Source: Bauldia sp. (lineage in GTDB: Bacteria > Pseudomonadota > Alphaproteobacteria > Rhizobiales > Kaistiaceae). From it: a stretch of 64,000 nt of DNA. The notes beneath the pieces are model-generated. The model did not search any database. It was not told where the DNA came from and saw nothing but the letters and a program-made list of their open reading frames with translations. The stretch covers positions 3,872,543-3,936,542 of the forward strand of contig NZ_OZ246980.1 of NCBI RefSeq assembly GCF_965232525.1, given 5' to 3'. Below, piece by piece: positions 31,586 to 36,608 of the stretch (positions within the stretch are counted from its first letter, which is position 1; the number at the start of each line of letters is the position of its first letter). The translations under genes and the position numbers were made by a program.

Positions 31586-33085
31586 TTACAATAAGGGACT
31601 GATCAACCGCGCCGCGTTTTCGGTGAACCGCTCGCTCGGTCGCCGTCTGGCCCACCGTTCGGGATCGAGCCGGTCGCTGTCGCGAATGTAAGAGTCCTGC
31701 AGATCGGCCAGCTCGCCGGCGAAGCCGGCATCGTAGACGAACAGCGTCACCTCGTAATTGAGCCACAGGCTGCGCATGTCGAAATTAGCGGTGCCGAACA
31801 TCGCCCGCGCCCGGTCGATGGTGATCGATTTGGTGTGGAGCAGGCCGCCCCGATAGAGATGCACGGCGATCCCCGACCCCAACAGGTCGTCGTAATAGGA
31901 CCGGGCGGCATAGCGGGCGAGCACGGAATCGACCCGCTCCGGCACCACGATCCCGACCTCCACCCCCCGCCCGGTGGCGCGGGCGAGCGCCCGGAGCAGC
32001 GAGACGTCAGGAACGAAGTACGGTGTCGTCAGCACCAGGCGCTCGCGTGCCGAGTCGATCAGCGCGATCATCATCTGCAGGAGCCCGTCGCCGGAGATGC
32101 CGGGGCCGCTGGGAATGACCTGCATGTCGACCGTACCGACCGGTGCATTGAGGTGCAGCCCGGCGCTCTGCACTAGTTTGACCACCGGCTCGCCGGTTTC
32201 CAGTCGCCAGTCGGCGATCGCGGTCGCCGCAAGCGGGGCCACGGCCGGCCCTTCCAGCCGCACCATGGCGTCGATCCATTCGCCGACCCCAGCGTCGGTC
32301 TTGAAGTAGCGCGGATCGACCATGTTCATGCTGCCGGTCCAGGCGATCGTGCCGTCGATCACCACGATCTTGCGGTGCAGGCGGAGGTCGGTGCGTCCGA
32401 CGAAACTGCGAATGAGGCCGGCTGGCAATGCCGCGCGGACCTCGACCCCGGCGGCGCGGAGGCGCGACGGGACGCGGCTGCGCCACCATGGCCGCGCGCC
32501 GAGCGCATCGATCAAGAGGCGGCATGACACGCCGCGCTTGGCAGCCCGGACGATCGCTTCGGTCACCGCGTCGGCCGCGCCGCCCTCGCCCCAGATATAG
32601 AAGACCATGACCACGCTGGTTTTCGCCGCGTCGACCTCGGACGCGATCCGGTGAAGCACCGTCTCGGTATTGTCGAACAGTTGGTAGGCGTTGCCGCCGA
32701 CCGCGTGGCTGCCGGCCAGGTTGCCACCGAGCGCGTCGAGCCGGCGCGTGGTCGGGTCCTCGTGGATCGCTTCGCCTTCGACCGGCCCGTGCACCTTCTC
32801 CGGTCCGAACAGCCGGCGGTAACCGCGATGGAGCGTGATCATCTCGCGCTCACGAGCCGGATCGATACGCCGCTCGCCAATCAGCAGATAGATGAGCGCG
32901 CCCGCGTAAGGCACGAGCGCGACAAGGAAAAGCCACGCCAGGGCGACGCCCGGCTGCGGTCGCTTGTTGATCACTCGGACGCCGATGCCGACGACCAACA
33001 TCCAGTGGATCACCACGCCGATGCTGACGGCGTTCAGCACCAGCGCGGCTCCTCGCGCAACGGCTTCGTCGGTTTCATGCGCCAC
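31586..33085 (-). CDS. cls: Cardiolipin synthase
   Basis: N-terminal PLDc_N TM hairpin, two HKD motifs (HRKIVVID, HTKSITID). Confidence 0.93.
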   Translation of the reverse strand: MAHETDEAVARGAALVLNAVSIGVVIHWMLVVGIGVRVINKRPQPGVALAWLFLVALVPYAGALIYLLIGERRIDPAREREMITLHRGYRRLFGPEKVHGPVEGEAIHEDPTTRRLDALGGNLAGSHAVGGNAYQLFDNTETVLHRIASEVDAAKTSVVMVFYIWGEGGAADAVTEAIVRAAKRGVSCRLLIDALGARPWWRSRVPSRLRAAGVEVRAALPAGLIRSFVGRTDLRLHRKIVVIDGTIAWTGSMNMVDPRYFKTDAGVGEWIDAMVRLEGPAVAPLAATAIADWRLETGEPVVKLVQSAGLHLNAPVGTVDMQVIPSGPGISGDGLLQMMIALIDSARERLVLTTPYFVPDVSLLRALARATGRGVEVGIVVPERVDSVLARYAARSYYDDLLGSGIAVHLYRGGLLHTKSITIDRARAMFGTANFDMRSLWLNYEVTLFVYDAGFAGELADLQDSYIRDSDRLDPERWARRRPSERFTENAARLISPLL

Positions 33086-33145: not shown

Positions 33146-34216
33146 TCAGCGGCCCCGGCGTGCCGCCACCGCGTCGGCGAGCGTATCGAGCACCGCGACC
33201 GAGGCGTCCCAATCGATGCAGCCGTCGGTGATGCTTTGGCCGTAGGTGAGCGGCTCCCCTGCCTTCAGGTCCTGCTTGCCGCCGACCAGATGGCTTTCGA
33301 TCATCGCCCCGACGATCCGCTGGTCGCCGGCCGCGACCTGTTCGGCGATCGCGTCGATGACCTTAGGCTGGTTCTCCGGCTTTTTCGCGCTGTTGGCGTG
33401 ACTCGCGTCGATCATCACCATCGGCCGCTGGCCGGAGCCTTCGAGCACCGCGCAGGCGGCCTCGACGCTGGCAGCGTCATAGTTCGGCGTCTTGCCGCCG
33501 CGCAAGATGATATGACAATCCGGATTACCGGCGGTCGCTGCGATCGCCGACTGGCCGCTCTTGGTGACGGCGAGGAAATGGTGGGGCATCGACGCCGATT
33601 TCACCGCGTCGGCGGCGATCTTGACGTTGCCGTCGGTGCCGTTCTTGAAGCCAACCGGACAGGAGGTTCCCGACGCCAGTTCCCGGTGGACCTGGCTCTC
33701 GGTGGTGCGCGCCCCGATCGCCGCCCAGGAGACCAGATCGGCAATGTATTGCGGCGTCGTCATGTCGAGGAACTCGCAGCCGGCCGGGAGCCCCATGTCG
33801 TTGACGTCGGCCAGCAACGCCCGGGCGAGCCGCAGTCCCTTGTCGATCGCGAAGCTGCCGTCGAGGTCGGGATCGTTGATCAGCCCCTTCCAGCCGACCG
33901 TGGTTCGCGGTTTCTCGAAATAGACCCGCATGACGATTTCCAGCCGGTCGGAGAGCCGCGCCCGAACCTCGGCGAGGCGGCGCGCGTAGTCGCGCGCGGC
34001 GTCCGGATCGTGAATCGAACACGGTCCGATCACGACGATCAGCCGATCGTCGGCGCCGGCCAGGATGCGGTGGATCGCAGCACGGCAACCCACGACCGTG
34101 GCGGTCGCCTTGGCATCGCGCGGGTACTCGGCGATCACCGCGTCGGGCGGACTGAGCTCCTTGATCGCGGTGATCCTGAGATCGTCGGTGGTATCGGTTT
34201 CGAGGGTCGTCAGCAT
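33146..34216 (-). CDS. aroG: Class I DAHP synthase (AroF/G/H family)
   Basis: GPCSIHD, MRVYFEKPRTTVGWKGLINDP, IGARTTESQ.HRELASG, GFKNGTDG, HIILRGG, DASHANS.K, YGQSITDGC; isoenzyme type cannot be fixed from sequence. Confidence 0.96.
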   Translation of the reverse strand: MLTTLETDTTDDLRITAIKELSPPDAVIAEYPRDAKATATVVGCRAAIHRILAGADDRLIVVIGPCSIHDPDAARDYARRLAEVRARLSDRLEIVMRVYFEKPRTTVGWKGLINDPDLDGSFAIDKGLRLARALLADVNDMGLPAGCEFLDMTTPQYIADLVSWAAIGARTTESQVHRELASGTSCPVGFKNGTDGNVKIAADAVKSASMPHHFLAVTKSGQSAIAATAGNPDCHIILRGGKTPNYDAASVEAACAVLEGSGQRPMVMIDASHANSAKKPENQPKVIDAIAEQVAAGDQRIVGAMIESHLVGGKQDLKAGEPLTYGQSITDGCIDWDASVAVLDTLADAVAARRGR

Positions 34217-34257
34217 GGGTCACGGTTCCTTGGCTTTGCGCCCGGCCGGCGACCAAC

Positions 34258-34288
34258 AAAAAAAGCCGCCGGAAGGTCCTGGCGGCTT
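34258..34288 (-). terminator. Attenuator terminator upstream of DAHP synthase
   Basis: AAGCCGCC(A)GGA-CCT-TCCGGCGGCTT followed by a run totalling 7 T on the minus strand, about 40 nt before the ATG. Confidence 0.85.
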
Positions 34289-34313
34289 GTCGGTGGTCGT
34301 TTCTCGGGTGAAA

Positions 34314-34394
34314 TCAGATCGAACGAACCCCTGCCTCCGCCATGGGCTGCGGATAGCTAAACCAAAAGTAATAGAAGGCGGCGGCGCGGTTCAT
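34314..34394 (-). CDS. Aromatic-amino-acid leader peptide MNRAAAFYYFWFSYPQPMAEAGVRSI (26 aa)
   Basis: Manual translation; 7 aromatic codons within 8 positions, directly upstream of the terminator and the DAHP synthase gene. Confidence 0.85.
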   Translation of the reverse strand: MNRAAAFYYFWFSYPQPMAEAGVRSI

Positions 34395-34829
34395 GGCGCG
34401 CGTCATAGCCGAAGCCCGCACCGTTGTCACCCCGTCAATGTTGGCCCGCTGTGGCGGTCACCGCAGATCGGGGTCGATGGAACACAAGCGTCAACGCCGT
34501 GAATCCCGCCCGTTGTCGAATCCTCTGCGGAGTGTAGTTGGTATTTCGGGAGAACGCGTGCGGCGGTGCGTGCTTCGAGGCTCGGGCTGAAGCCCTCGCA
34601 CCTCAGCATGAGGGGGGTGGGCGAAGATCAAGTCGGGACAGCCCGCTTGGGCTGATACAACAGACCTCATCTTGAGGTGCGAGGCCGCCCTGAGCGGCCG
34701 AGCCTCGAAAGACGCAGCATCGGTGCAGCTTGCACCGACCCGCGTGCTTCGGGACCGTCTTCGGGTACCTCTGCATCAGGAGAGCGGACCACTGATACAT
34801 CGCAATTCAACAACGACAACACCGCGGAT

Positions 34830-34982
34830 CCCTCCCCGGCACCGGGGAGGGGGGGACCACCCGAAGGGTGGTGGGCGGGGTGAACCCTAACCCACCCCCC
34901 AACACACCGACCTCCAGACGCCGATGGTCAACCCCACCCGACCGCCGCTTCGCGCCGGCCACCCTCCCCAGATTGGGGAGGG
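34830..34982 (+). mobile_element. Gene-less copy of the DUF559 element (left end, ~50-bp spacer, right end)
   Basis: Left end 34830-34880 and right end 34932-34982 match the ends flanking the DUF559 gene. Confidence 0.65.
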
Positions 34983-35280
34983 ATGGCGGTTGGAGCGCCA
35001 TTTCCGAGCAGCCCTCCGATCGCTACGACAGGCGAGGCCGCCCAGACACCAACGATCGCGACGACGAGACACGACGCCGACACCGCGGTCCCTCCCCGGC
35101 ACGGGGAGGGGGGACCACCCGAAGGGGTGGTGGGTGGGGTCCTTGCGAGATTTCGACCCTACCCGGCCAACCTTCGCGGGAATGAGCGGAGGTGGTGACG
35201 ACTGTACAGCAACAACGCCGATCCACCCGTCCCAGCGGAGCGGACTCCCGGTCCGCGCCGCCCGTCTCCACCCGCTCCGC

Positions 35281-35412
35281 GTCGTCCTCTGGCTTGACCA
35301 GAGGACCCATCGAAACCGTTGCTCCGATGACGACCGCGATACCGGCTTTCGCGCTTCAGTGCCCAGCCGCGCACCACTGATACCGGGTCCTCTGGTCAAG
35401 CCAGAGGACGAC
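35281..35412. repeat. 132-bp REP doublet (family R3) with 28-bp perfect inverted ends
   Basis: GTCGTCCTCTGGCTTGACCAGAGGACCC ... GGGTCCTCTGGTCAAGCCAGAGGACGAC; second copy at 51322-51453. Confidence 0.9.
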
Positions 35413-35652
35413 GGGGTGGAGGCTCAACGGTCATCGCCCTCATGCCGAGAGCCCGCCCCTCGACCTCGTCCAGGACCCGCCCCCCGACCTCATCTTGAGG
35501 TGCGAGGCCGCCCTGAGCGGCCGAGCCTCGAAAGACGCAGCATCGGTGCAGCTTGCACCGACCCGCGTGCTTCGGGACCGTCTTCGGGTACCTCCGCATC
35601 AGGAGAGCGGACCACTGATGCATCGCAATTCAACAACGACAACACCGCGAAT

Positions 35653-36137
35653 CCCTCCCCGGCACCGGGGAGGGGGGACCACCCGAAGGGTGGTGGGTGG
35701 GGCTCGCGAGTCGCACGATCAAAAATGCCGTGTACAGTGACTATCATGGCAAGCAACCGCGCCCGCCAACTCCGAAAGACTATGACCCCGCAAGAGGTTA
35801 AGCTGTGGGTTCATCTGAGAACGTGGCGCGCGGGTGGCGTCCACTTCCGGCGACAGGCGCCGGTCAACGGTTATGTGGTTGACTTTCTGTGTCGCAGAAA
35901 CCGCCTCGTTATCGAAATCGACGGGAGCGGCCACACGCGGTTCCGCCAGGCGACAAACGACCGCACTCGCGATCAAGCTCTCGCAGCAGCCGGCTATCGT
36001 GTCGTTCGCTTCTGGAATAGAGAAATCGACACCAATCTGCCGGGCGTGCTTCACGCCATACGGTTCGCAGTTAACGAAACCAGAAACCCCACCCGACCGT
36101 CGCTTCGCGCCGGCCACCCTCCCCAGATTGGGGAGGG
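35653..36137 (+). mobile_element. Candidate autonomous element: double-hairpin inverted ends enclosing a DUF559 nuclease gene
   Basis: Left end CCCTCCCC-n6-GGGGAGGG-GG-ACCACCC-GAA-GGGTGGT-GGGTGGGG (35653-35702); right end CCCCACCC-GACCG..CCGGCC-A-CCCTCCCC-AGATT-GGGGAGGG (36087-36137). Mobility is inferred, not shown. Confidence 0.6.
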
Positions 36138-36141
36138 ATAA
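35746..36141 (+). CDS. DUF559 (Vsr-like / very-short-patch-repair-like) endonuclease domain protein
   Basis: ARQLRKTMTPQEVKLW..LR, HFRRQAP..GYVVDF.C....LVIEIDGSGH, D..RD..L...GYRVVRFWN; start at ATG 35746 or 35725. Confidence 0.92.
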   Translation: MASNRARQLRKTMTPQEVKLWVHLRTWRAGGVHFRRQAPVNGYVVDFLCRRNRLVIEIDGSGHTRFRQATNDRTRDQALAAAGYRVVRFWNREIDTNLPGVLHAIRFAVNETRNPTRPSLRAGHPPQIGEG

Positions 36142-36207
36142 GACGCGCGTTACCCAATCGTCACCGCAGATCGGGGTCGATGGAGGCGTACGCAGCGCAA
36201 CCGCGAT

Positions 36208-36359
36208 CCCTCCCCGCTTGTCGGGGAGGGGGGACCACCCGAAGGGTGGTGGGTGGGGCGAACCCTAACCCACCTCCCAACACACCGACCTCCAGACACC
36301 GTTGATCAACCCCACCCGACCGCCCTTCGCGCCGGCCACCCTCCCCAGATTGGGGAGGG
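36208..36359 (+). mobile_element. Second gene-less copy of the DUF559 element
   Basis: Left end 36208-36258, spacer nearly identical to 34881-34931, right end 36310-36359; a further left end at 36467-36516. Confidence 0.65.
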
Positions 36360-36608
36360 ATGGCGGTTGGAGCGCCATTTCCGAGCAGCCCTCCGATCGC
36401 TACGACAGGCGAGGCTGTCCAACCACCGACGATCGCGACGACACGTCACGACACCGACACCGCGGTCCCTCCCCGGCACCGGGGAGGGGGGACCACCCGA
36501 AGGGTGGTGGGTGGGGTGAGCCCCCCAACTCAACCGCCGACACGCGAACCCAAGTGAGCCGACATAGCCAGAAGGCCGGCCGCCATGAGCGCGGCCGGCC
36601 TCGCCGGT

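Follow-up and report, generated by a model that had tools for sequence, protein, structure and literature searches.

A predicted leader-peptide attenuator conserved upstream of class I DAHP synthase genes in Bauldia and other proteobacteria

Introduction

Leader-peptide attenuation upstream of a DAHP synthase gene has been described in Corynebacterium glutamicum. The aroR leader was first seen before aroF in that species (PMC4046766), and attenuation by this leader, which carries Phe-Tyr-Phe, was tested experimentally, with only Phe limitation being effective (Neshat et al. 2014, summarised in PMC11802643). Attenuation at aroF of Escherichia coli was hypothesised by Camakaris (1980; cited in PMC2659441 and PMC8632094). 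In Sinorhizobium meliloti, which belongs to the same order as Bauldia, trpL is leaderless, its mRNA starting at its AUG (PMC10117765).

A short ORF rich in aromatic codons lies upstream of a DAHP synthase gene in Bauldia sp. (Kaistiaceae), and is the subject of the present analysis. The route to Phe, Tyr, Trp and many aromatic products is entered through DAHP synthase, which catalyses its committed step. To our knowledge, control of DAHP synthase at the gene level is poorly described in proteobacteria outside the enterics. No description of a proteobacterial aroG-type leader was found in full-text searches, in line with the initial annotation of this locus, which knew of no characterised alphaproteobacterial case; an earlier prediction may be contained in a 2004 comparative study of proteobacterial attenuators.

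Results

The leader ORF and the downstream gene

The sequence analysed is a 64-kb stretch (the window) of a complete, 4.36-Mb genome. The leader and a class I DAHP synthase gene are both on its minus strand:

34314 to 34394, minus strand: leader ORF, 26 codons plus TGA, MNRAAAFYYFWFSYPQPMAEAGVRSI (from sequence; kept in relatives)
34353 to 34376, minus strand: candidate regulatory codon cluster F7 Y8 Y9 F10 W11 F12 S13 Y14 (from sequence and a window count)
34226 to 34231, minus strand: Shine-Dalgarno AAGGAA of the DAHP synthase gene (AAGGAG or AAGGAA is kept in relatives)
33146 to 34216, minus strand: class I (AroFGH-type) 3-deoxy-7-phosphoheptulonate (DAHP) synthase, 356 aa (TIGR00034)

The leader begins with ATG at 34394-34392 and ends with TGA at 34316-34314. 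It reads ATG AAC CGC GCC GCC GCC TTC TAT TAC TTT TGG TTT AGC TAT and, from codon 15, CCG CAG CCC ATG GCG GAG GCA GGG GTT CGT TCG ATC TGA. Codons 7-14 thus hold three Phe, three Tyr and one Trp codon in eight positions. The initial annotation had described this 26-codon minus-strand ORF with the same composition, and each of its coordinates is correct. Two longer ORF starts (GTG and ATG, at 34430 and 34406) were rejected: they lie inside the candidate promoter boxes and are unconserved.

The stretch of seven aromatic codons in eight is unique among the 127,954 eight-codon windows in the six frames of the 64-kb sequence, and the three windows with six aromatic codons are overlaps of the leader's own cluster. 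A chance origin of the cluster is excluded by this uniqueness.

The downstream gene product scores 525.5 bits with TIGR00034 (cut-off 173.2). With the AroG equivalog model NF006723 it scores 553.6 bits, just below the cut-off of 568, and with the AroH subfamily model it is above that model's own cut-off. A class II DAHP synthase is encoded elsewhere in the genome (contig 1, 3740845-3742158, L068; PF01474, 709 bits), and no aromatic mini-ORF was found within 500 nt 5' of that gene. Entry to the shikimate pathway thus does not depend on the class I enzyme alone, which is a second isozyme behind a predicted attenuator. This qualifies the initial annotation, which placed the leader at the first step of the pathway, since the class II gene is unattenuated.

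A cardiolipin synthase gene (31586-33085, minus strand; TIGR04265, 379 bits) lies 60 nt past the DAHP synthase stop codon, and this neighbour is also found in sister genomes.

Distribution and conservation of the leader

The class I gene type occurs in 11 of 41 relatives, in each case preceded by the same leader. A leader pattern search of a species-representative genome collection returned 54 places, about 48 of which are true leaders with a terminator; these are from Bauldia, Kaistia, many uncultured genomes and Thalassobaculum. The other pattern matches are chance occurrences inside long ORFs. A covariance model was built from 48 distinct leaders, and strong matches to it are found in five families in a 401-genome sample of the order. 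In this sample, 42 genomes have the AroG-type gene, with a model match directly upstream in 41; the 42nd gene sits near a contig start. The model also has matches in other alphaproteobacterial orders and in other classes of the phylum. At all of the strong matches inspected (22 loci from the order, 10 from the class and 12 from the phylum), there is an AUG-started aromatic leader ORF, with a class I DAHP synthase gene (58-77% identical) just downstream. Three weak matches without the gene (L109, L110 and L127) are terminators only.

Leader ORFs are 21-28 codons long at the inspected loci, and 23-28 codons long in the set of 78 distinct relatives. At least five aromatic residues in eight are found in 77 of 78 distinct leaders; every one of the 78 has both Phe and Tyr codons, and 73 have a Trp codon. 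Leaders without Trp occur in several other orders and classes. The frame and the aromatic cluster are constant while other residues vary (..FYWYFGFRRPLAEVGVRSI, ..YFWYFSYDSSLAAGGSRSI, ..FYFYFFWHLRPLADREG), and outside the cluster the peptides diverge widely (MTFASAPTFYWYFGFRRPLAEVGVRSI, MITVATSYFWYFSYDSSLAAGGSRSI, MNAAATRFYWYYFPKPLAEEGLRSP, MSAKFYFYFFWHLRPLADREG, MKFTRFFFFFYFSYSQPTAVEKR). An uncultured alphaproteobacterium (L055, contig_15243) has an otherwise typical leader, ..LFCYWFSYPLTLAEAGARSI, without an in-frame ATG; this could be a decayed copy, or one that starts at a variant codon.

Codon choice within the leaders is strongly biased towards the rare codons UUU and UAU. UUU makes up 70% of Phe codons and UAU 71% of Tyr codons in the leaders of the 78 relatives, against 10% and 40%, respectively, in long ORFs of the window. 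Part of this bias is forced by the pairing of region 1 (see below), and the remainder may make ribosome stalling sharper.

In all, the leader ORF, the aromatic cluster, the terminator and the mutually exclusive pairings are found upstream of orthologues in more than 100 genomes. Conservation of the aromatic cluster upstream of orthologues, which the initial annotation had put forward as a check, is thus confirmed. A chance ORF beside an ordinary terminator or structural element, with no regulation, is at odds with an aromatic cluster that is unique among some 128,000 windows, and is refuted by the conservation; we give it practically no credence.

The terminator and a predicted four-segment RNA switch

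Five further elements were identified by folding:

34258 to 34288, minus strand: intrinsic terminator, an 11-bp stem with one bulged A, loop CCU and 7 U (RNAfold; relatives)
34277 to 34299, minus strand: region 3, made up of the terminator 5' arm AAGCCGCCAGGA and the letters just before it, which can pair with GGGG of region 2 (folding)
34328 to 34341, minus strand: region 2, GGCGGAGGCAGGGG, codons 18-22, which pairs with region 1 or region 3
34349 to 34361, minus strand: region 1, the anti-antiterminator strand, UUUAGCUAUCCGC, codons 12-16, which pairs with region 2
34377 to 34385, minus strand: Ala codons GCCGCCGCC, an extra, semi-conserved partner of region 2 in this genome (minimum-energy fold)

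The terminator 3' arm and the U run make up region 4, so that regions 3 and 4 together are the terminator. Its hairpin has the form AAGCCGCC-A-GGA/CCU/UCC-GGCGGCUU followed by the U run (minus-strand letters of 34288-34258: AAGCCGCCAGGACCTTCCGGCGGCTTTTTTT), with an energy of -17.3 kcal/mol (RNAfold). A simple terminator scan missed it only through its rule on loops and bulges. The last U is 41 nt before the ATG of the aroG-type gene at 34216, which agrees with the GC hairpin and 7-U tract placed about 40 nt before the DAHP synthase ATG in the initial annotation.

The predicted antiterminator is formed by regions 2 and 3, and combines GGCGG of region 2 with CCGCC of the terminator 5' arm and GGGG with the C-rich stretch just upstream. 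The 2:3 structure has an energy of -21.0 kcal/mol in this genome. Mean energies across 48 sequences are -12.5 (1:2), -24.1 (whole 2:3) and -17.9 kcal/mol (3:4), and resemble those of the classic trp case. Both the GGCGG:CCGCC pairing and the second antiterminator helix were seen in all sequences folded.

Pairing is retained well above controls. For the 1:2 helix, 94-97% of cells are paired (48 and 78 sequences), compared with at most 59% in slid controls. For the OFF state (1:2 plus 3:4), 94.9% of cells are paired against at most 59% when slid, in a 78-sequence alignment that was fitted to that structure and so favours it. Compensatory changes occur in five OFF-state pairs, three of them in the terminator stem (GC to AU and others). 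In the second antiterminator helix, the two strands of one sequence complement each other better than strands taken from different ones of the 31 sequence types do (-7.30 versus -6.40 kcal/mol, permutation p = 0.007), and one clade has rewritten both of its strands together, GGCUAAUGCG with CGCAAGCC (GGCU..UGCG with CGCA..AGCC). Classical covariation of the 1:2 and 2:3 core helices is weak and not significant, because the GC-rich cores hardly vary; the invariance of the cores in the first 48 sequences was partly forced by the search pattern, and the set was then widened with the covariance model. Region 1 shows no synonymous change, and its one common variant, Ser to Gly, preserves pairing. 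Thus, the constraint on region 1 is on the RNA.

Two mutually exclusive pairings had been named in the initial annotation. UGGCGG (34342-34337) with CCGCCA (34285-34280) exists and appears in minimum-energy folds. The other, GCCUUC (34379-34374) with GGAGGC (34338-34333), is present in the minimum-energy fold of this genome, in which, without a ribosome, the GCCGCCGCC stretch pairs with GGCGGAGGC; however, it is unconserved, relatives having GCCACC and similar sequences at this place. The conserved partner of region 2 is UUUAGCUAUCCGC of codons 12-16, which had not been named.

Ribosome position and the presumed kinetic nature of the switch

When the full-length RNA is folded at equilibrium under ribosome masks, the terminator forms at every ribosome position. 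A switch at this locus would therefore need to work kinetically, like that of trp. In the classic trp leader too, the terminator is more stable than the antiterminator, and control is thus kinetic. Folds that allowed pairs to span the ribosome were dropped, as they gave physically implausible structures. Instead, nascent RNA was modelled by folding only the stretch between the 3' edge of the ribosome (A-site codon plus 12 nt) and the start of the terminator 3' arm.

With this model, 0.55-0.61 of the letters of the terminator 5' arm are sequestered as long as the A site has not moved beyond the last aromatic codon (78 sequences), and sequestration falls to 0.22 from three codons further on. The last aromatic codons thus mark the limit up to which, in the ribosome-mask model, a stalled ribosome does not block region 2. 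Masked folding had been suggested in the initial annotation; the nascent-RNA folds fit the stall geometry, while full-length RNA always gives the terminator. By position count, a ribosome whose A site holds W11, F12 or Y14 would hide all or part of region 1 and end before region 2, and stalls at F7-Y9 fail to extend into region 1. At the stop codon, a ribosome would hide GGGG of region 2 and not its GGCGG, so that termination would rely on fast re-pairing of regions 1 and 2.

The same geometry bears on the alternative that the switch is set by a protein (TRAP-like), by uncharged tRNA (T-box-like) or by a riboswitch, with the ORF being incidental. In favour of such a device, conservation is stronger in the RNA cores than in the peptide. 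However, the ORF keeps its frame, length, AUG and aromatic cluster from class to class although the surrounding nucleotides change, and the position of the aromatic codons coincides exactly with the limit at which a stalled ribosome would free region 2. There is also no Rfam riboswitch or T-box match, and no specifier or T-box-like anatomy. We regard a switch of this kind as very improbable, and the ribosome as the likely sensor.

A putative promoter and a probable leaderless start

Two hexamers upstream of the leader ATG resemble promoter elements:

34403 to 34408, minus strand: -10-like hexamer CTATGA, after a 16-nt spacer and 8 nt before the ATG (from sequence; conserved)
34425 to 34430, minus strand: -35-like hexamer GTGACA (from sequence; conserved), with a putative promoter role

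A (G)TGAC(A) hexamer starts 35-38 nt 5' of the leader ATG in about 65 of 77 relatives, and a CTATAT- or CTATAG-type hexamer is found in the same place in relatives, ending 7-9 nt before the AUG. A Shine-Dalgarno-like 4-mer upstream of the leader ATG is absent from 72 of the 77 relatives (present in 5). From the hexamer spacing and the missing Shine-Dalgarno sequence, the leader mRNA is probably leaderless or nearly so.

Directly upstream of the putative promoter there is a repeat-rich island (about 34458-36516) with near-identical stretches of about 217 bp. Sister genomes carry on that side a conserved ORF ending ...VECWL*, and the island thus looks inserted beside the promoter.

RNA runs deposited under the label of this species are poly-A libraries, with 0 reads on the leader locus, and assembled RNA-run contigs of relatives are too coarse at the leader loci. 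One relative with a 7.0-Mb genome has a reference-identical 155-nt RNA contig (L094:1504-1658) that ends at the leader U run; its depth is thin, and it starts 29 nt 5' of the predicted start.

A fifth conserved segment and possible action in trans

Beyond the terminator, one more conserved element is found before the gene:

34242 to 34253, minus strand: fifth segment GUCGCCGGCCGG, complementary to the terminator 3' arm (conserved; duplex energy)

The sequence between the U run and the Shine-Dalgarno AAGGAA is GTTGGTCGCCGGCCGG. The fifth segment is 2-4 nt past the U run in 61 of 78 relatives, and reads GCCGCCGG in most. Its duplex with region 4 has an energy of -14.3 kcal/mol, compared with -8.2 kcal/mol for shuffles. 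In the classical model the segment has no role, because it is transcribed after the termination decision.

This raises the alternative that the locus is a small independent gene, its RNA of about 137 nt and/or its 26-aa peptide acting in trans and cis control being secondary or absent. The promoter-like boxes of its own and the strong terminator would suit such a gene, and the A-E-x-G-x-R peptide tail and the fifth segment are conserved beyond the needs of a simple switch. There is also a precedent in the same order: Sinorhizobium has the trans-acting attenuator products rnTrpL and peTrpL (PMC6614838, PMC7298713). However, 42 class I DAHP synthase genes were found in the order sample and 41 of them are preceded by the leader; its other matches are weak, and those inspected are terminators only. 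In addition, the tail is fixed at the nucleotide level, including third codon positions, and coincides with region 2, which points to RNA pairing and not to peptide function, while the residues after region 2 vary freely (VRSI, ARSI, VRAV, SRSI). A trans role would, moreover, supplement attenuation and not substitute for it. An independent gene is thus an improbable explanation, and attenuation in cis remains the preferred one.

Discussion

The conserved ORF, codons, terminator and exclusive pairings support in outline the leader-peptide attenuator before DAHP synthase that the initial annotation had proposed. From these sequence features, the class I DAHP synthase gene is very probably controlled by a ribosome-mediated (leader-peptide) transcription attenuator. 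Where transcription starts, that the leader is translated, that transcripts end at the U run and that amino-acid supply matters are all deduced from the sequence, and the mechanism would be as follows.

The promoter GTGACA-N16-CTATGA would place the transcription start at the leader AUG or no more than about 2 nt from it, and translation would be leaderless. Given ample charged tRNA-Phe, tRNA-Tyr and probably tRNA-Trp, the ribosome would pass codons 7-14 and region 2. Behind it, region 1 (UUUAGCUAUCCGC), and in this genome also the GCC run, would re-pair with region 2 (GGCGGAGGCAGGGG). Region 3 would then be free to form the terminator with region 4, and the polymerase would halt at the U run (34258), releasing an RNA of about 137 nt. 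When aromatic aminoacyl-tRNA is scarce, the ribosome would stall at W11, F12 or Y14, covering region 1 and leaving region 2 free; stalls at earlier aromatic codons would be less effective. Two helices, GGCGG:CCGCC and GGGG:CCAC/UCCC, would then join region 2 to region 3 and keep the terminator from forming, and transcription would read through into the gene. The expected outcome is more of the shikimate entry enzyme when aromatic amino acids are short.

The initial annotation also held that one leader integrates all three amino acids. Joint sensing of Phe, Tyr and Trp is plausible in this genome because W11, F12 and Y14 are all in the effective stall window, and we judge the chances of it to be about even. 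The leader does carry all three kinds of codon, as the initial annotation had stated; however, the Trp codon is absent from 5 of 78 leaders, and in aroR of C. glutamicum, the only tested analogue, only Phe limitation had an effect. A broader proposal, of an ancient pan-proteobacterial "aroG leader" family that reports any aromatic shortage and in which the RNA, the peptide or the fifth segment has a second role, either in trans or on translation of the read-through mRNA, is speculative and appears unlikely.

If the predicted function is true, tRNA charging would tune nearly all class I DAHP synthase genes of Hyphomicrobiales, as well as those of many other proteobacteria. The family provides an annotation rule and a covariance model for a device that is missing from genome annotation. 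The leader would also be a natural test case for the mixing of three amino-acid signals, and could be of use in engineering aromatic production. It brings no change to how attenuation as such is understood.

Comparison with known systems

None of the leader families of Rfam 15 matched in the 64-kb window at E up to 10. In the loci of 16 relatives, no Rfam leader family reached its gathering score, the best being Phe_leader (RF01859) in an AT-rich relative, with 36.3 bits against 55. The Burkholderia sRNA BcKCsr2 matched over exactly 34258-34394 on the minus strand with 11.7 bits (gathering score 40); we take this to be a chance match, since the score is low and the match does not recur in the leaders of relatives from other classes. 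A match to RcsR1 covers the terminator only. In NCBIfam, five leader peptides matched 0 families at E up to 10. The leader peptides are almost never called as genes in public data and, where called, are named "hypothetical protein".

Among the closest described systems is aroR-aroF of C. glutamicum, in which there is likewise a short aromatic-codon ORF before a DAHP synthase gene, and stalling raises read-through. As in Bauldia, there are two DAHP synthase genes, with a leader described only before aroF (PMC4046766). The two systems differ in that C. glutamicum belongs to another phylum and aroR has three regulatory codons without Trp; the likeness taken from the literature is one of function. 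The Bauldia-type leader has 5-7 aromatic codons, usually including Trp, and looks leaderless. One of the two C. glutamicum DAHP synthases was matched by PF01474 in a control.

The enterobacterial trpL-trpEDCBA and pheL-pheA leaders share with the Bauldia leader the four segments (1:2, 2:3, 3:4), regulatory codons that overlap or precede region 1, and an intrinsic terminator. Unlike these, the Bauldia leader precedes a gene for the entry enzyme and not for a terminal branch, mixes three kinds of codon, and is without a Shine-Dalgarno sequence. In S. meliloti, trpL/rnTrpL is of the same order and likewise has a leaderless ORF, a ribosome-dependent attenuator and an intrinsic terminator (PMC6614838, PMC10117765). 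It differs in controlling trpE(G) and in having Trp codons only, and its RNA and peptide are proven to act in trans.

The uORFC-13-1 motif of Acholeplasma, identified computationally, comprises a uORF that contains Phe codons and lies next to a terminator; it occurs only in front of aroF (Brewer et al. 2021, PMC8632094). It is itself a prediction, from Mollicutes, and differs from the Bauldia leader in having an RBS, in a U run that codes for Phe, and in its unrelated sequence and structure.

The leaders described here are a large, well-conserved family of predicted proteobacterial attenuators that is found in neither Rfam 15 nor NCBIfam. The family extends beyond the alphaproteobacteria, and devices of its kind are already known at DAHP synthase genes in Corynebacterium and Acholeplasma.
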